From a virus (Duplodnaviria > Caudoviricetes): a stretch of 27,179 bases of DNA. Positions 1 through 18,359 of the stretch are shown in pieces. The stretch spans positions 1 through 27,179 of IMG/VR virus record IMGVR_UViG_3300020413_000062. The stretch is one strand, 5' to 3'. The notes beneath the pieces were generated by a model. The model was not told where the DNA came from, ran no database searches, and was given only the letters and a program-made list of their open reading frames with translations. Made by a program: the position numbers and the translations under genes. The stretch's first letter is position 1. The number at the start of each line of letters is the position of its first letter.

Positions 1-154
1 TCCATTCTATTAGACGTTGTTCAAACTCTTCATAGGTGCCATTCAACACATGCTCGTTTTGTTTTGCTCTGTAGATAAGAAAGTGATCAAGAAGCAGAAA
101 CAACTCATCACGCTTTATATCTCTCTCCAGACGTTTCTTAGTATGATGTTTCAT
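1..154 (-). CDS. Hypothetical phage protein, 5' part only (MKHHTKKRLERDIKRDELFLLLDHFLIYRAKQNEHVLNGTYEEFEQRLIEW...), runs off the window start
   Basis: Translated by hand (absent from the ORF track): ATG at 154, GGAG a few nt upstream, open to position 1, same strand as neighbours. Confidence 0.7.
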   Translation of the reverse strand, partial: MKHHTKKRLERDIKRDELFLLLDHFLIYRAKQNEHVLNGTYEEFEQRLIEW

Positions 155-247
155 GGGTCTCCAGATCCCCGAAAAAAATTCTGGGCAAAAAAAATAAAAA
201 TCGTTTTTAAAGAATACATGGCTGCGATACCAGATACCCTATCAAGA

Positions 248-533
248 CCTCGGCCCCAGAGAGCGGCGCATAGGCCCGGCTGCTCTGGGGCGAGGGGGTT
301 GCTCCTTTCGGTAAGCGGCCGGGTCTCACCCTTTGACATCCGCACCATAATCGCGAGCAATCTCTCCACCTTTTTACCGAGGCCAGTCCCTCCTGTCATT
401 TGCCTTATCGGAGCGTGGTCATGCCACCTTTGCGACTCGGCACCGTGGTTCATCTCCGACCCCATAGCACTCTACTCTTAACCTCAACCACGGTGAGATG
501 GTGCGGTTTAGCTGGGGTTTAAACTATTGTCAA
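248..533 (-). ncRNA. Putative large structured non-coding RNA of unknown family
   Basis: GC-rich island in an AT-rich genome. Complementary helices: 506-498/348-340 (9 bp), 495-486/450-441 (10 bp), 533-528/338-333, 440-436/381-377, 295-283/261-248, plus a GAAA-capped hairpin at 316-301. Lies downstream of the promoter at 603-575. Confidence 0.65.
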
Positions 534-574
534 CCTGTCATAATTATTGCCTCTCATCACTCTATTAGATCACT

Positions 575-603
575 ATGATCGCACATTCTTGAGCAGATGT
601 CAA
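575..603 (-). promoter_or_regulatory. Sigma70-type early promoter (TTGACA-17-GATCAT, TG extended -10)
   Basis: TTGACA TCTGCT...TGTGC GATCAT; same family as the promoters at 960-988, 1118-1146 and 5355-5383. Confidence 0.7.
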
Positions 604-606
604 GAA

Positions 607-930
607 CTATCTCAAATAAGCAGGGCCAGTCCACTGTATCCAACCAAGGTTAGTGAACACGTTGCCTCGTGCTGCGTTCCTAGCAGGGGCAGCGTAACCA
701 GCGGCCTTGAGGATGTCTCCATACTTGAACTTTTTGTCTGTCTCCGTGTTAACCACGAAGCCCCAAACACTGTTCCGTTGTAGGATCTTGATGTATTTCT
801 GACCCTCTTTGACAGCAAGGCCCTCTATGAACTCAGTCTGCATCCTTTCGTTCTCAGGCATAAACCGCATATAGTCTTTAATCATCACTTCCTTGACGGC
901 CTCTAGAGCGGTTTGCATTTCCTGTTTCAT
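607..930 (-). CDS. Conserved phage hypothetical protein (GDILKAA...APA...ARGNVF...WTGPAYL family)
   Basis: ORF 607..945 with AGGA RBS before the ATG at 930; the C-terminal motif is typical of a family widespread in T4-like phages. Confidence 0.85.
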   Translation of the reverse strand: MKQEMQTALEAVKEVMIKDYMRFMPENERMQTEFIEGLAVKEGQKYIKILQRNSVWGFVVNTETDKKFKYGDILKAAGYAAPARNAARGNVFTNLGWIQWTGPAYLR

Positions 931-959
931 CTGTATTCCTTTCATTAGTTTATGTATAG

Positions 960-988
960 ATCATGACACACTTTGAAGCAAATGTCAA
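960..988 (-). promoter_or_regulatory. Sigma70-type early promoter (TTGACA-17-CATGAT)
   Basis: TTGACA TTTGCTTCAAAGTGTGT CATGAT directly upstream of the RBS/ATG at 930. Confidence 0.8.
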
Positions 989-1016
989 CACTTTTCTTCA
1001 TTTATAATCCCTTATA

Positions 1017-1029
1017 TATCAATGACTTA
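1017..1029 (+). promoter_or_regulatory. IHF-consensus box (WATCAANNNNTTR)
   Basis: TATCAATGACTTA matches the consensus exactly; near-identical boxes at 5400-5412 and 5456-5468. Confidence 0.5.
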
Positions 1030-1063
1030 GAATTTATTTTCTTCCTTAAAGGACTACATACCT

Positions 1064-1093
1064 ATTATACCAATGCCACGGCCCACCTGTCAA
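1064..1093 (-). promoter_or_regulatory. Sigma70 consensus promoter (TTGACA-18-TATAAT, TGn extended -10)
   Basis: Perfect -35 and -10 hexamers, back-to-back with the plus-strand promoter at 1118. Confidence 0.7.
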
Positions 1094-1117
1094 GGGTGAA
1101 ATGAATAAAAAAAAGAC

Positions 1118-1146
1118 TTGACTTCTGCTCAGATACCTGTTATGAT
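1118..1146 (+). promoter_or_regulatory. Sigma70-type early promoter (TTGACT-17-TATGAT) with upstream A-tract
   Basis: TTGACT TCTGCTCAGATACCTGT TATGAT CACTAT, followed by an AAGGA RBS and ATG at 1179. Confidence 0.8.
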
Positions 1147-1178
1147 CACTATACAATAAACAATTAAGGAAACAAATT

Positions 1179-1325
1179 ATGTCAGTTAACTATCTTATGG
1201 AAGCGAAAGGAATGGATAAGGAAGAAGCGGAAATCGTAGACTACCTTATGTGTAGTAAGGGTATGTCCTATGAAGAGGCACTCGAAACCTCTCTCATGCT
1301 GCTTCAAATCCAAAACGGAAACTAA
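1179..1325 (+). CDS. Small 48-aa acidic early protein (MSVNYLMEAKGMDKEEAEIVDYLMCSKGMSYEEALETSLMLLQIQNGN)
   Basis: Translated by hand (below the ORF-track cutoff); has its own promoter and AAGGA RBS; internal repeat YLMxxKGMxxEEA twice. Confidence 0.8.
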   Translation: MSVNYLMEAKGMDKEEAEIVDYLMCSKGMSYEEALETSLMLLQIQNGN

Positions 1326-1401
1326 GCTCCTCTCCTTTTAAAACGTGGGGGCAGCGCTCTGCTGCTTGGGGCGTGCGGATTTAGATAACCACATTTCCCC
1401 A

Positions 1402-1623
1402 CTATTTACCACTTAGCACCTCAAGTATAGAACTCTTACCCTTCTGTCTCACCTTCCTGTTACTCAGGTTCTTATTCTTTTTCTTCTCCTTCCTACTCAG
1501 GCTCGGTACGTTGTTTACTCGTGTTCCGTGTTTGATTCCTGCCATAGTAATCTCTTCTATCGTTCTAAAGCACCCTATACAGATATCATCCTCTAGGACA
1601 CAAACTCCTATGCACCCCGACAC
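1402..1623 (-). CDS. DUF1289-like Cys-rich (putative Fe-S/Zn-binding) protein with basic tail
   Basis: Motif CIGVCxLxxDxCxGCFRTxEEI; GTG start overlapping the upstream TAG. Confidence 0.65.
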   Translation of the reverse strand: MSGCIGVCVLEDDICIGCFRTIEEITMAGIKHGTRVNNVPSLSRKEKKKNKNLSNRKVRQKGKSSILEVLSGK

Positions 1624-1805
1624 TATTTTGCTACAGGGAAAAAGTAGTAAGTGTCCCCAGTGAAATACCACAAGAGGGCAGAGAATGGCGCAGTGATAAC
1701 GATGATGCCTATCAACTCTACTAGGATACGTTTCCATAATGGCAAAGTTTCTTGCCACTCTCTGAATGGTTTTAGTTTTCTATACAAATAACCCATATAC
1801 CACAC
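1623..1805 (-). CDS. Small membrane protein, hypothetical
   Basis: One hydrophobic segment; tightly packed with neighbours. Confidence 0.65.
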   Translation of the reverse strand: MWYMGYLYRKLKPFREWQETLPLWKRILVELIGIIVITAPFSALLWYFTGDTYYFFPVAK

Positions 1806-1941
1806 ACCATGCCTCTAGGAATAATGCTTGTGCCAGTGGGGCCATCATTACTAACGCAGCACTGATACCTAATAACAGCAAATATTCTTCCCATGTTAAG
1901 TTTACTAATCTATCTTGAATTCTCTTCTCAGGTGAATTCAT
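1780..1941 (-). CDS. Small membrane protein, hypothetical
   Basis: 3' part of ORF 1780..2064; the ATG at 1941 overlaps the upstream TGA (ATGA); hydrophobic. Confidence 0.6.
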   Translation of the reverse strand: MNSPEKRIQDRLVNLTWEEYLLLLGISAALVMMAPLAQALFLEAWCVVYGLFV

Positions 1942-2075
1942 ATTACTTCTTCTCCGTCTTTGCCTATCTGTTGAATACAGGATTGGGCACTCGACCACCA
2001 ACCATCTGGTGGCAGTGGAGCACCCATTCCAAGCCATATACCGAATATCAACCACAAAATCCAATTACCTTTCAT
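1938..2075 (-). CDS. Small 45-aa membrane/secreted protein (MKGNWILWLIFGIWLGMGAPLPPDGWW...)
   Basis: Translated by hand; GAGG RBS upstream; stop overlaps the next ATG. Confidence 0.6.
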   Translation of the reverse strand: MKGNWILWLIFGIWLGMGAPLPPDGWWSSAQSCIQQIGKDGEEVI

Positions 2076-2124
2076 GTCATGTTACCTCATAACCAATCTG
2101 TCCACATCGGCAAGAAATGCATCA

Positions 2125-2394
2125 TCAGCGCCCTATCCTCATCCTCATTGAATTTATGGCGTGTTCAATCTCGGCGGTTGCTTGTGATTTTGGCATCATA
2201 CTACAATGCATCTGTGACCCGAATGACTCGCAAACCTCAATCATATCTGATTTCTGTGCAATCATAGACTTCAGCGTTGACGGTTTGTAATCATAATAAT
2301 TTTCATTCGAGTCTGTGCTGGTGGCGGACGTAGCGGCGCATCCTACGGATAGCACACACAAGAATAAAATCGGAAGTGTTTTCAACTTCTCCAT
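2125..2394 (-). CDS. Putative lipoprotein
   Basis: Basic N-terminus, hydrophobic stretch, lipobox-like LSVG-C; GGAG RBS upstream. Confidence 0.75.
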   Translation of the reverse strand: MEKLKTLPILFLCVLSVGCAATSATSTDSNENYYDYKPSTLKSMIAQKSDMIEVCESFGSQMHCSMMPKSQATAEIEHAINSMRMRIGR

Positions 2395-2419
2395 GACGTT
2401 TTTTTCTCCTCTTCGGAAG

Positions 2420-2659
2420 TTATAGTTTAATTGCTAGGACTATCAGTATAGCGACTAGCAGTATGTTGGTAGTTAAAATGAGAATACCCAGCATTGTGTG
2501 ATACCAAACCCATCTCGTTTTGTAGGCATTTTCAATGCTCACATCATCAGGGTCAGGGTCAACACTCAACTTGGCGCCCTCTACAAAAAACTTCCCGAAA
2601 CTACCTATCCAAGAAGCTTTCGTCTTTTCAGTTCTTGCTTTACTTTTGTTTTCCATTTT
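2420..2659 (-). CDS. Hypothetical membrane protein
   Basis: C-terminal transmembrane helix; DPDPxDVSIENAYKTRWVWYH motif; start uncertain (2659 or 2689). Confidence 0.7.
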   Translation of the reverse strand, partial: KMENKSKARTEKTKASWIGSFGKFFVEGAKLSVDPDPDDVSIENAYKTRWVWYHTMLGILILTTNILLVAILIVLAIKL

Positions 2660-3594
2660 CTCTGCACTGTGGTAGACGGATGCTCCCACATCTTCTTAGC
2701 GGGTGTGTTACATTCAAAATACGAAAACTCAGCCAACCCGCCTTTCTTCACTCTGTCGTTCTCGTAAAAAAACCATGTATCCCAATCAATCATATCAACC
2801 CAGTGTTTTGTGTCAGGATACTTTCTCTGAATTGCCTTGTTGTGATATTCGCTCGTCATATCGTCAGGAACATCATTTGTTTTGTTGGCAAATTCATCGT
2901 ACAATCTACGTCCCATCCACCCAGCAGTGGCATTAATTGACGTTTTGTTTTTGTCGTATCCGTCCCACTCGTGTAGGTCATGGAATATGTTCATCCAGCA
3001 CATATTGACCAGTGGCACGTTCAGTGTTTGACACAATGTCTGTAGTCCAACTATGGCACGGCAAGTGTCCACATAGCATTGTGGAATGTTATACATGCCT
3101 TCGTAATAATTTTTTAATCTGCCGTCCAGTGAGGGAATTCCATAGTTCCAAACACCATACCCGCCACCAACAATCAACCAGTTTGACATCGGGTGTTTGA
3201 GCTCACCACCAGTGCCATCGTGATACACGTTGTCTTTTAAAATGTAATTGGTAAATCCTTGTCCCACGCCGTTGTAGGCATTTCTGTAGTCGGGGTCTGT
3301 GTGGGTCATCAAAAACTCTTTGCGTAGTGGCGATGACCACATACACAAAACTGCTGGATTCATGTCCAGCGTTTCTTGTTTGGAAAGTTCGTATGCGAGT
3401 CGGTCAAAAATAATTTGGTTGCCAGAAGCCATCTCGGCGGTGTTCAATAGTTGAGGCCCTACTCGCAAGTCCTCTTTTAATTGCCATGCCCAAGATAGTT
3501 TCTTCTCATCTGGTTGTGCCGTGAAAGAACAACCACCTACCAATAATAACTTATCGTTTGCCCCCATCGTAGCGAACCGCATGTCCTTTTTCAA
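2605..3594 (-). CDS. SGNH/GDSL-like hydrolase-fold protein
   Basis: N-terminal GGCSFT block, A..ASGN, C-terminal HP. True start is probably 3582 or 3567. Confidence 0.7.
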   Translation of the reverse strand: MKKDMRFATMGANDKLLLVGGCSFTAQPDEKKLSWAWQLKEDLRVGPQLLNTAEMASGNQIIFDRLAYELSKQETLDMNPAVLCMWSSPLRKEFLMTHTDPDYRNAYNGVGQGFTNYILKDNVYHDGTGGELKHPMSNWLIVGGGYGVWNYGIPSLDGRLKNYYEGMYNIPQCYVDTCRAIVGLQTLCQTLNVPLVNMCWMNIFHDLHEWDGYDKNKTSINATAGWMGRRLYDEFANKTNDVPDDMTSEYHNKAIQRKYPDTKHWVDMIDWDTWFFYENDRVKKGGLAEFSYFECNTPAKKMWEHPSTTVQRKWKTKVKQELKRRKLLG

Positions 3595-5399: not shown

Positions 5400-5468
5400 T
5401 AAGTCATTGATTTATAAGGAAAAGCGAAAATAATTGAAATTTCTTTTCCCTTATGAATCAAGGGCTTA
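5400..5468. repeat. Imperfect inverted repeat (~25-bp arms), each arm carrying an IHF-consensus box
   Basis: TAAGTCATTGATTTATAAGGAAAAG ... CTTTTCCCTTATGAATCAAGGGCTTA. Confidence 0.75.
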
Positions 5469-5996
5469 GTCAACAGGGCGGTATTTGTCATAGAATCTAC
5501 CCCATTGCCACTCTTCTGGGATGACGCCATCCGCCCTAACTAGGTGAGCTTTACCAGATGGTTCAACACACCATCGCATTTTAGGGCGCTCATACGCCTT
5601 CTGGCGAATCTTGGCGACTGTTTCTGGACTATGTTTCCGCCCATACATGGGATTGAACTCCCCACGGCGTGTACCTGTCATTGTGGCGGATATCTTGCGT
5701 CTGTGGTCTTCGGTCAGGCCATCGGCGTGAGGGTGTTTACTACCTAACTTTGCCTGTCGTATACGTTCACGGCCTTCGGGTGTGTGCCACCCTGTCCTAT
5801 CTCGACACCTATCAACGATAGGCAGATTGTTCTTATTCTGCCCTATGACATAATCTCTAACTTTCTCAACTTGAGAGAATTTGATAATCATCTCTCGTGG
5901 TTTTGGTACATCCTGTAGACTGTGTTCGTCAACAATCCAGTATTCGTTCTTCCATCCACCACATTTGAAGAGAAAGAATCTAGAAGCTCTTTCCAT
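5466..5996 (-). CDS. NUMOD3-repeat DNA-binding protein (homing-endonuclease-related), no recognisable nuclease domain
   Basis: HTPEGRERIRQAKLG, LTEDHRRKISATMTG and NPMYGRKHSPETVAKI repeats. Confidence 0.8.
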   Translation of the reverse strand: MERASRFFLFKCGGWKNEYWIVDEHSLQDVPKPREMIIKFSQVEKVRDYVIGQNKNNLPIVDRCRDRTGWHTPEGRERIRQAKLGSKHPHADGLTEDHRRKISATMTGTRRGEFNPMYGRKHSPETVAKIRQKAYERPKMRWCVEPSGKAHLVRADGVIPEEWQWGRFYDKYRPVD

Positions 5997-15746: not shown

Positions 15747-15954
15747 TGAATGTCTCATCCCATTGTGTCTGTGATTGTGATAAGGCGAGTAAGTCTTCAT
15801 ATCCGCCAATTGTTTTACCATCAACAAGAATTTGGGGCACCTGTCCTACGGGCTGATACTCCTCTTCAAACGTAATTTCCATGCCTCGCAAAAACCCCTT
15901 TGCGTCATGGCAATAACTACATGAATCCCTATACTGTACTACTACTTTACTCAT
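15739..15954 (-). CDS. nrdC: Glutaredoxin
   Basis: CSYC active site, VPQI, IGGY motifs; inside the RNR cluster. Confidence 0.92.
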   Translation of the reverse strand: MSKVVVQYRDSCSYCHDAKGFLRGMEITFEEEYQPVGQVPQILVDGKTIGGYEDLLALSQSQTQWDETFNG

Positions 15955-16570
15955 TTCCTATATCCTTTTTTCCAATTTGTTTAAAACCCCATTCTCGTTC
16001 CTTGCACCACCAACATGTGTTACACCGTCCTCTATCCAATTCAGTACAAGAGTGTGTAATAGGCATAATCTCATCGGCAATCCCCAAATCAAATCCCAAC
16101 TGGATAGTTTGGTCTTTTGTTAGGTTTGCAAATGGATGCCCTACATACTCCTTATGTTCTGGTTTAGGTTCCCATCTATCGTTGGGAAGAGGATACCCCT
16201 CAGGCAACATCTCTCGTTGCATGGGGGGATACTTATTCATTCCATTCAGTAGATACTCTGCATACCCCTTCTCAAAAATCTCATATGCTCCGCTCGTTAC
16301 ATAGTCAGAGGGATTATCAGAGGTAATTTGTCCTACTATTGTCGTACTGATTACAGGTATATCGAGTCTTCGGCAAGACCACTCTAACACCTTGTTTGCG
16401 TAGTGGACGGCCCCATCAATTTTTGGGACTGTGAATGGGTTACACTCTTGTTCTCTAGCGAGGCATATGGATTTAGTCATATACCAGAGAACGGCAGAGT
16501 CCCAGCCACCACTCACAACCACCGCAATCTTTTTATTTATTGGTATTAGTTTTTCTAATTCATCCTTCAC
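15947..16570 (-). CDS. QueC-like PP-loop ATPase (7-cyano-7-deazaguanine synthase superfamily)
   Basis: SGGWDS PP-loop, PF..LTK, THSC...RCNTCWWCKER zinc site; start uncertain (16570 or 16591). Confidence 0.75.
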   Translation of the reverse strand: MKDELEKLIPINKKIAVVVSGGWDSAVLWYMTKSICLAREQECNPFTVPKIDGAVHYANKVLEWSCRRLDIPVISTTIVGQITSDNPSDYVTSGAYEIFEKGYAEYLLNGMNKYPPMQREMLPEGYPLPNDRWEPKPEHKEYVGHPFANLTKDQTIQLGFDLGIADEIMPITHSCTELDRGRCNTCWWCKEREWGFKQIGKKDIGNE

Positions 16571-18359
16571 ATGCAACACAATTATCACCATCTATCATAC
16601 TTTGAAAATCAATCTCTTTGATTGCCTGTCGTTCAATTCTCTTCGACACTTTATCAGCCTTCCCCAATTTCTCTGAGCGGCAGTAGTATAATGTCTTGAG
16701 ACCTTGTTTCCAAGCAAGGTAATGGGCTGCATGTAGATATTTGATATTTGCGTCTGGTCTGAAAAATAAATTAAGAGACTGCGATTGGTCAATAAATGCT
16801 TGACGGTCAGCACCAAGTTCAATCAACCATCGCTGGTCAATCTCCATGGCAGTTTTGTACACGGATTTCTCTTGCTCATTCAAAATATCTAGATGCTGAA
16901 CTGACCCATCATTGGATATTATCGATGACCATATTTCGTCATAATTGACTTCATCACTGCTCGATACTTTATTTTTAATGATACCATCCAGATGCTTATT
17001 CTTATTGAGATACGCTCCAGAAAGAGTGTCTTGCCTGTAAGCATTCGCACGATACGGTTCAATACTTGGCGAGGTGTTTCCCATAATAATACTAGAACTA
17101 GCGTTGGGAGCAATAGCCATAACGTGACTAAACCGCCTTCCTGTGCCTCTAGCATCAGGAGCTTCGCCTCTTTCTTTACCGATTGATAAGTTTGCTTCAT
17201 CCAATTTACTCCTTATAAGTCGAAATACTCTCATGTTAGCACCCTTGGCAATAGCAGATTCCCAAGGAATGTTTTTCTTCTGTAAGTAAGCATGGAAACC
17301 AAGAGCACCGATACCGATACTTCTTTCTTGGGTAGCAGAGTAAACCGCTCGTGAAACTTGTTTTGGTGCGTTGTCGATGAAGAACTGTAATACATTGTCC
17401 AACATCTCTGCCACATCTTTCAAAAACATATTGTCTCTCGACCATGCGTCATAATATTCTAAGTTCACTGAGGATAAACAACATACTGCTGTTCTCTTCT
17501 CATTTGTAGGTAAAATAATTTCCGAACATAAATTTGACTGATTTATTCTCAGTCCCAATTCTTTTTGAAACTCTGGTAGGTGCCTATTACTGGTGTCGAT
17601 ATAGTGAATATATGGTTCACCTGTCTCCATACGCATTTCTAGTATCTTTTGCCAAAGGTCTTTCGCTGATACAGTATCTTTGACTTCACCTGTGTGTGGG
17701 TCAGTCAAGTTCCATCTATCATCAGCATCGGGGTCTTTCATACACCGTTCAATTAATTCCATGAATCGGTCAGTGATATTGATACCATGATGTAGATTCA
17801 AACATCTCCAGTTTTGGTCACCTGTTGGTTTACGCATCTCCAAGAAAACTGTGACATCTGGATGAGAGATGTCTAGGTAAGCGGCGTAACTACCCCTTCT
17901 GGTGCGTCCCTGTCGATATGCCAAGGAACTGGAATCGTAGGTTTTGAGGTGAGGCATGACACCAGTTGACTTATCATCAGCGGCCCTAATGCCAAACCCA
18001 ATACCCACACCACCGCCAAGCATAGAGAGCCAATTTGTTTCTGATAAGTTTTCAACTAATCCCTCCGCAGTGTCATCGATGTAATTTAAAAAACAAGAAA
18101 TAGGCAGACCACGTTTTGACCTACCATATGAGAGTATGGGTGTTGAATACGATAACCAGTGTTTACTTGAATATTCATACAATCTTTGAGCATGTTCTAA
18201 ATTGCTAGAAAATGTCTTGGATACAAAGGCAAATCTTTCTTGCGGAGACTCTTCCTCTTCTTTCATGTAACTTTCTTTTAATCTTTGTAGACCCAATTTA
18301 TCAAACAACTGGTCTCTAGCGGTATCAATAAAGATACCTTGGTATTCTCTTTTTGGCAT
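16560..18359 (-). CDS. nrdA: Ribonucleotide reductase class Ia alpha subunit (no ATP cone)
   Basis: PISCF, SNLCSE, VCCLSS, APNASSS, LKTLYY and C-terminal CVAC; TAATG overlap at 18359. Confidence 0.97.
   Translation of the reverse strand: MPKREYQGIFIDTARDQLFDKLGLQRLKESYMKEEEESPQERFAFVSKTFSSNLEHAQRLYEYSSKHWLSYSTPILSYGRSKRGLPISCFLNYIDDTAEGLVENLSETNWLSMLGGGVGIGFGIRAADDKSTGVMPHLKTYDSSSLAYRQGRTRRGSYAAYLDISHPDVTVFLEMRKPTGDQNWRCLNLHHGINITDRFMELIERCMKDPDADDRWNLTDPHTGEVKDTVSAKDLWQKILEMRMETGEPYIHYIDTSNRHLPEFQKELGLRINQSNLCSEIILPTNEKRTAVCCLSSVNLEYYDAWSRDNMFLKDVAEMLDNVLQFFIDNAPKQVSRAVYSATQERSIGIGALGFHAYLQKKNIPWESAIAKGANMRVFRLIRSKLDEANLSIGKERGEAPDARGTGRRFSHVMAIAPNASSSIIMGNTSPSIEPYRANAYRQDTLSGAYLNKNKHLDGIIKNKVSSSDEVNYDEIWSSIISNDGSVQHLDILNEQEKSVYKTAMEIDQRWLIELGADRQAFIDQSQSLNLFFRPDANIKYLHAAHYLAWKQGLKTLYYCRSEKLGKADKVSKRIERQAIKEIDFQSMIDGDNCVACEG

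Follow-up and report, generated by a model that had tools for sequence, protein, structure and literature searches.

A structured, pseudoknotted RNA without an Rfam family, and its start-stop leader, in a clade of T4-like marine phages

Large pseudoknotted RNAs are rare in bacteria and phages and have often proved to be catalysts or RNA-only machines. Among those described are ROOL (Weinberg 2017, PMC5737381) and GOLLD (PMC12286853), which the consulted sections of these papers present as large RNAs of phages whose function is not known and in which kissing loops and variable linkers occur; the same sections report ROOL to be non-essential (PMC12286853). Analysis of a linear virus record of 27,179 bases (17% complete), the whole of which is called the window below, revealed a structured RNA on the minus strand, at about 535-215, of a T4-like marine phage. 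Like ROOL and GOLLD, as far as the consulted sections describe them, it is a large phage RNA with multi-stem junctions, pseudoknots or kissing loops and a poorly conserved internal linker; and the replacement of its core by an ORF in a relative (G006) parallels the non-essential nature of ROOL. It is unlike them in matching no Rfam model and in having a core of about 190-230 nt, compared with about 580 and 800 nt in those sources, and unlike many GOLLD and ROOL loci in that the RNA does not lie beside tRNAs, carries a start-stop leader and is found in one phage clade. Our best guess is that it may work most like GOLLD and ROOL while being unrelated to them. This large RNA is modular and uncatalogued; its covariation is solid but thin, its leader is striking and its range is one uncultured clade. 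What is new is an RNA family without an Rfam entry and a start-stop leader that opens its first helix.

The T4-like genes on the minus strand of the window include those for primase, NrdA/B, thymidylate synthase and baseplate, and the window DNA was found to be present in marine metagenomes. The best cultured matches of the window primase, from cyanomyophages, share only 41% identity with it, and the clade is therefore regarded as uncultured. An alphaproteobacterial tmRNA is encoded in two of five related records, G003 (RNA present) and G006 (core absent), so that the host of the clade is likely an alphaproteobacterium. A first-pass annotation of the window had proposed an RNA at 533-248. Conservation was found to reach about 30 nt beyond 248, to about 226, and its upstream limit is the leader at 555-530. 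The features of the locus are as follows.

607-945, minus strand: early gene upstream of the RNA, 112 aa, assigned to PHROG 5014 (unknown function), with a separate promoter at 988-960
575-603, minus strand: sigma-70-type early promoter, TTGACA, 17 nt, GATCAT (10/12 matches)
530-555, minus strand: start-stop leader, SD GAGAGG at 555-550 and ATG ACA GGT TGA at 541-530, the TGA beginning helix P1
334-532, minus strand: conserved 5′ core of ~190 nt, closed by P1 and P3
532-528/338-334, minus strand: P1, TGACA/TGTCA, invariant in all eight rows having both strands
526-522/513-509 (within 509-526), minus strand: hairpin P2, two-sided change in 2 of 5 stem pairs
518-514/463-459, minus strand: pseudoknot 1, P2 loop ACCCC with GGGGT, 5/5 pairs invariant in 9/9 rows
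506-503/343-340, minus strand: P3, CCGC/GCGG, invariant
482-498, minus strand: hairpin TCTCA/TGAGG with a 7-nt loop at 493-487, framing stems invariant
493-487/449-443, minus strand: kissing helix of 7 bp, 7/7 pairs intact in 9/9 rows, 4/7 compensated
411-472, minus strand: junction domain, with GAGT/GCTC (472-469/414-411), CGG/CCG (458-456/440-438), GTGG/CCAC (427-424/418-415) and a GNRA-like GCAAA loop
379-392, minus strand: hairpin GAGG/CCTC (392-389/382-379), three covarying alleles, two-sided change in 2 of 4 pairs, one pair broken in 2 of 9 rows
344-372, minus strand: purine tract AAGGYGGAGAG (372-362) and variable domain (23 nt here)
317-331, minus strand: T-loop-like hairpin GGG-TGAGA-CCC, kept in 9 of 10 rows, no two-sided change
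317-331 region, minus strand: GGCC at 320-317, a possible pairing partner of GGCC at 276-273, no two-sided change
226-300, minus strand: 3′ module, GGCCTATGC (276-268) enclosed by the long stem 295-248 (this lineage only); GYATCTGGYATC (237-226)
167-201, minus strand: two T-tracts with a short GC run after each, probable 3′ boundary
2-154, minus strand: downstream gene, 65 aa in L030, without a family

The element forms the GC-rich island first noticed by eye, with a GC content of 0.56-0.67 over 201-500 versus 0.26-0.53 in the remaining 100-nt bins of positions 1-3000. The early promoter proposed above it was also recovered, at 603-575, and an upstream TTGACA was found in all ten leader-bearing copies, 66-71 nt before the TGA of the RNA; sigma-70-type sites by themselves occur at chance level (8 found, 10.9 in shuffles). 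The TTGACA at 533-528 was rejected as a promoter -35 element, the promoter scan making no call there and the sequence varying among copies. T-tracts comparable to those at 167-201 were found in 11/11 loci inspected, and the terminator scan made no call of a classic terminator at that position.

Searches of the window with the Rfam 15 models, among them GOLLD, ROOL, RNase P, tmRNA, group I and II introns and riboswitches, gave no match at gathering score, and none at E ≤ 10 over 150-700. At E ≤ 1 in nine related loci the RNA was likewise unmatched; the sole matches were tmRNAs elsewhere in two of the loci, and their recovery demonstrates that the search works. ARAGORN found no tRNA or tmRNA in the window, and RF01849 is absent from the window record, yet present elsewhere in G003 and G006. 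The first-pass statements that the RNA belongs to no known family and lacks the hallmarks of tRNA, tmRNA, RNase P and group I/II introns were thus borne out in the window and its homologs. A group II intron was rejected for having no Rfam match and no conserved downstream frame to join, and a group I intron for having no Rfam match in an element that comes after a promoter and a stop codon. HDV-like, RNase P, lysine riboswitch and c-di-AMP riboswitch likenesses were considered and dropped, there being no Rfam signal. No description of this RNA was found in the literature outside subscription papers, four exact sequence words included in the search. A viral screen (PMC10690425) reports, in the sections consulted, RNA candidates of 29-151 nt from IMG/VR 3, and these could include pieces of this RNA.

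In viral and metagenome contigs, pattern scans recovered 11 distinct copies of 335-569 nt, so that the homologs sought for the element exist; core identity among these family sequences is 77-97%. True copies made up 1/28, 4/90, 5/6, 13/13, 5/6 and 5/18 of the matches per scan, the rest being chance, and L200 and L224 were dropped as chance matches; in a scan of prokaryote genomes none of three matches was true. Model R1 recovered its control G001 and found nothing in two sets of other virus records (0/49 and 0/44, mostly fragments, L243 left out) and nothing below E 0.03 in 61 other loci. By blastn against 50,697 phage records, the window RNA had no match at E ≤ 1 and L206 none at E ≤ 5, and seven matches in plasmids were at chance level (E=4). 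Copies with known flanks share one genomic site, behind the same gene block (G001-G005), in one phage clade. Within the reach of these search tools the family therefore appears narrow.

Folding of the single window RNA was no better than that of shuffled sequences (z -0.78; 17 of 100 shuffles equally good), with a z range of -1.1 to 0 for single-sequence folding, and the case for structure consequently rests on the homologs. Ten copies were aligned over the whole element (A2, without L215, which nearly duplicates L030) and nine over the 5′ part (A3, from which L201, a near duplicate of L202, was omitted too). A core model of 42 pairs was found to be paired in 98.4% of 377 cells, compared with 32-46% in slid controls. 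The covariation on which the first-pass proposal depended is present, with two-sided change in 8 of the 42 pairs and a score reached by none of 500 shuffles; it comes from a handful of independent events and was scored by shuffles, which relatedness by itself can beat, and not by a phylogeny-aware test. Most helices never vary, including P1, P3, pseudoknot 1 and the junction stems; P1 and P3 give no covariation because both are invariant, and invariance neither proves nor harms any of these helices. Of the GOLLD/ROOL hallmarks, multi-stem junctions and covariation-backed pseudoknots, the RNA shows multi-way junctions, a covarying kissing helix and an invariant pseudoknot, with few independent events.

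All six pairings quoted in the first-pass annotation are perfectly complementary in the window, and about half of the helices proposed there need another drawing. The closing stem TTGACA/TGTCAA is retained as TGACA/TGTCA, the outermost pair lying outside the kept part, and of a 9-bp stem at 506-498/348-340 the homologs keep CCGC/GCGG and not the remainder. L203 retains the core, although both strands of P1 and the 3′ strand of P3 are absent or changed in it. A 10-bp stem at 495-486/450-441 was reduced to a 7-bp covarying helix. This is drawn as a kissing helix because each strand lies in the loop of an invariant stem, 449-443 being in that of CGG/CCG (458-456/440-438), and it fits better than the 10-bp stem since the outer A-U is broken in 2 of 9 rows and TCTCA/TGAGG frames one strand; RNAalifold, which is unable to draw pseudoknots, nests the helix. 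The loop-loop pairing ACCCCA/TGGGGT stands with the five pairs of ACCCC/GGGGT, not with six.

The hairpin GTGG-CATGA-CCAC was confirmed within the junction domain, whose stems are invariant in 9/9 rows while loop lengths vary; the register of this domain is our own model, RNAalifold choosing another. GGGT-GAG-ACCC persists in 9 of 10 rows in the form GGG-TGAGA-CCC, a T-loop-like hairpin. CCGAG/CTCGG (440-436/381-377) was given up, since it occurs in only 5 of 9 rows and competes with the covarying hairpin at 392-389/382-379. The CC-GAAA-GG of the hairpin GCT.CC-GAAA-GG.AGC, the tertiary pairing CCCGGC/GCCGGG and the long 3′ stem at 295-248 are each confined to the lineage of the window (3 of 10 rows).

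The reading frames of the element break in its homologs, in agreement with the first-pass view that it holds no credible ORF: the 104-aa frame is 15-98 aa long in the seven other rows tested, the longest opposite-strand stop-free frame is 64-96 codons in rows other than those of the window and L030, and neither ORF has a PHROG match. The core shares 87.5% identity between the window and G001, versus 67-77% for five neighbouring genes with 4-fold sites at 27-45% (near saturation), and between G001 and G004 the RNA is 80.6% identical versus 86-96% for the genes. There are two core alleles, about 20% apart, with every helix kept in both, and two mosaic alleles (L203 and L211). The plain reading of this mismatch of RNA and gene distances would be cassette exchange or two old alleles; it is the distances alone that disagree, the gene trees leaving G001, G002 and G004 open and no topological conflict between RNA and gene trees being shown. 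We conclude that the element is a real non-coding, structured, pseudoknotted and promoter-driven phage RNA without an Rfam family, as first proposed; none of the findings named beforehand as contrary to it, namely a strong Rfam match, absence of covariation, an ORF conserved at protein level or absence of transcription, was encountered.

As to transcription, 6 of 24 listed runs, from five studies, are RNA libraries, and contigs in four RNA runs (4/4 studies examined) span 333-534, 164-534, 306-508 and 361-524 and carry variants of L030/L213. The runs had been picked with this stretch, and their contigs, which may include DNA, reveal neither strand nor ends nor expression level; they cover the element and weakly support its transcription. 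Contigs of the same kind gave no real cover of the neighbouring genes in runs X17, X18 and X20, and some in X15; given how the runs were chosen, we base no conclusion on this difference.

The start-stop leader was absent from the first-pass annotation and is newly recognised here. An SD, an ATG, GTG or TTG, one or two further codons and the TGA of P1's TGACA were found in 10/10 copies with upstream sequence, in five leader types; the same layout occurs at 22 of 2373 TGAC sites in 17 phage loci, the RNA's own sites included. Between the window and L030 the leader differs by a 3-nt indel that preserves the frame. A gene cassette that the RNA replaced could have left the SD and start codon behind, and G006 has a real gene at this spacing. 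As both may have come with such a cassette, the in-frame stop is the informative part, and it may perhaps have arisen by luck, with a chance of a few per cent, the five leader types being related. Judging from ribosome size, a ribosome on the leader would cover P1 and P2, and if the frame fused to the first helix is functional, it represents an unusual coupling of RNA folding to the ribosome.

Comparison with G006 (161 kb, 91% complete) showed the element to consist of separable modules, the 5′ core and the 3′ part. This genome shares the promoter, the 3′ module and the downstream gene (96% aa identity to that of G001), and in place of the core (L226:2300-2790) it has a 147-codon ORF and another hairpin, with an 11-bp perfect stem. 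The replacement protein (142-147 aa) has no Pfam match, a PHROG match of E 0.008 and no usable Atlas match. The core is thus optional, a protein gene standing in for it in this close relative. Covariation in the 3′ module is weak, with 10 of 500 shuffles scoring as high and both two-sided changes coming from one row. The variable domain measures 66-69 or 217-219 nt in other copies, where it is closed by a covarying 4-bp stem with three alleles; copies differ in length within loops, and inserted sequence forms additional hairpins. Neither this domain nor the separability of core and 3′ part had been noted in the first pass. The 217-219-nt form (L206:~390-610, L208 and L211) is a multi-hairpin unit of its own that differs among the three copies, with no ORF and no phage match. 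The window copy, at 335 nt the shortest natural one, has a small core that suits SHAPE and cryo-EM, and nature provides controls in the two core alleles with swapped kissing loops, the P1-less copy, inserts of 20-220 nt and the sister phage with a protein gene.

With somewhat less than even confidence, we read the RNA as an early, ribosome-loaded, trans-acting scaffold or decoy, stand-alone and optional, in one clade of T4-like marine phages. The phages carrying it probably infect Alphaproteobacteria, and host RNA polymerase would transcribe the RNA immediately upon infection. A ribosome would load at the leader and reach the TGA after two to three codons; while sitting there it would cover P1 and P2, shielding the 5′ end and timing the folding. 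Once the ribosome is released, the RNA would close to its compact core, with the two loop-loop helices as a lock. It would then act in trans, either as a scaffold or decoy whose most likely partner is the host translation machinery or, like GOLLD and ROOL, by assembling itself into a particle. Ribosome loading, 5′-end protection and the partner are what we infer in this scheme; the promoter, the leader, the fold of a non-coding core with selection on its base pairs, the size-variable domain and the dispensability of the core are observed. Further unpaired SD-like purine tracts occur in the RNA with no conserved ORF behind them, which points to the host translation machinery as the likely target. 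The genes downstream differ between lineages, which fits action in trans: L030, of the window's lineage, has the 65-aa gene and then a Mom-family gene (L030:3708-4487, two genes downstream of the RNA), and the other RNA copies have a PNKP-type HAD phosphatase gene at the downstream position. The upstream PHROG 5014 gene adjoins the RNA in the window's lineage only. Points against this reading include the small, closely related family, the many helices that never vary and the unremarkable single-sequence folding; in addition, L203 keeps the core without P1, and no tRNA lies next to the RNA, tRNA genes being absent from the window and from 13 of 14 loci, with a single tRNA-Arg about 4 kb away in G006, a genome without the core. 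T4 rnaC/rnaD and marine-phage motifs such as manA are comparable in that they, too, are structured RNAs standing alone behind a phage promoter in T4-like phages; the present RNA is unlike them in being two to four times larger and in having no Rfam match.

A more far-reaching possibility, which we regard as unlikely, is a new class of large phage RNA whose fold or catalysis is gated by a host ribosome that stops on the two-to-three-codon frame, the stop codon being the first strand of the closing helix. Such an RNA would be a translation-triggered ribozyme or a ribosome trap, serving in the early takeover of the host and exchanged between phages as a cassette able to replace a protein gene. 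Also doubtful is a new ribozyme class (self-cleaving, splicing or circularising), maybe gated by the leader ribosome, which would process the early transcript or spread the cassette. Large ribozymes have invariant junctions, pseudoknots, GNRA-like or T-loop-like loops and a size-variable peripheral domain, and this RNA has many invariant junction bases, two pseudoknots, loops of both kinds and such a domain; the disagreement of RNA and gene distances would also fit cassette exchange. However, no Rfam ribozyme or intron model was matched, no conserved second exon follows downstream, no skipping joint was seen in the contigs of the four RNA runs, and copies with known flanks all lie at one genomic site. 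In architecture the RNA is like domain I of group II introns, with a closing stem, a 7-bp loop-loop helix comparable to alpha-alpha′, GNRA-like loops and a size-variable domain; unlike such an intron, the RNA has no Rfam match, no domain V-like hairpin or RT gene was seen, and it does not lie within a gene.

Action in cis appears improbable. Here start-stop translation or a ligand would switch the folding and thereby control read-through of the T-tracts into downstream early genes. The stop codon that overlaps P1 in 10/10 copies and the T-tracts behind the RNA in 11/11 loci suit such a leader, as does the 7-bp helix, which can be drawn nested or as a kiss and so leaves two folds open. However, the genes to be controlled are not the same ones (the 65-aa unknown and Mom, or the phosphatase), G006 has the same downstream gene without the core, no classic terminator was found, and a switch of 335-569 nt would be a large one.

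A replication primer, the purine-rich transcript forming an R-loop at a phage origin like ColE1 RNA II or T4 origin transcripts, is more improbable still. The RNA lies near a strand switch, at a gene-poor site that has T-tracts and is dense in promoters, one of them divergent. As in ColE1 RNA II (NC_001371; PMC8683028) and the RNA II of Vibrionaceae MRB (PMC3035462), so far as the consulted sections describe these, it is promoter-driven, purine-rich, structured and of 250-550 nt, ending near an A/T tract, and it has a few 8-16-nt words in common with the ColE1 origin. Its sequence homology to ColE1-type origins, however, did not rise above controls, and no antisense RNA I was found. ColE1 homology was rejected, 15-93 of 100 shuffles matching the alignment score and nhmmer finding nothing in either direction. 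A profile-profile comparison with nine ColE1-type origins fared no better, block shuffles matching in 21/21 settings and the reversed control scoring at least as high in 15/21. GC skew in G006 tracks gene strand and gave no further origin signal, and the core is dispensable there. Just as improbable is a selfish or near-neutral cassette, or what is left of a larger RNA in decay, which recombination between conserved flanks would shuffle: it would suit the presence of the RNA in some relatives and not G006, the mosaic alleles L203 and L211 and the narrow range (0/93 other virus records, 0/3 genome-scan matches), but the two alleles keep every helix, the core is conserved above the neighbouring genes between the window and G001, and no mobility gene is tied to the RNA, the nearby NUMOD3 gene being found in G006 too.

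Several further features of these genomes were observed. That NUMOD3-bearing gene (window 5466-5996) has 79-81% aa identity across the clade, a conservation beyond that usual for homing endonucleases. Window 960-1500 is gene-poor and promoter-dense, with minus promoters at 1093 and 988, a divergent plus promoter at 1118-1146, A/T tracts and GC-rich boxes, a layout repeated in G001-G006; an origin or a further small RNA could lie there. An early-promoter cassette motif (window 5383 and about 1020-1000) precedes several TTGACA promoters in the window and its relatives and is likely a handle for cassette recombination. Between nrdA and nrdB (window 15947-16591) lies a gene with a partial QueC-like PHROG match.

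A two-hairpin motif with the loop CCAYGGTTAG and a freely changing 7-bp stem was found inside L204, L202, L206 and L226. It occurs in the 3′ part of most RNA copies, is absent from the window's lineage, and stands alone just 3′ of the stop codon of an exported-looking protein in L251:1500-1565 (G021) and L253:1608-1501, minus strand (G012). It has no Rfam match and is likely a separate new motif. Two-piece alphaproteobacterial tmRNAs encoded by phages were found in L251:754-1127, L253:1964-2327, L269 (G006) and L270 (G003); in the first two, the piece between the halves is about 100 nt beyond the model length and looks structured.
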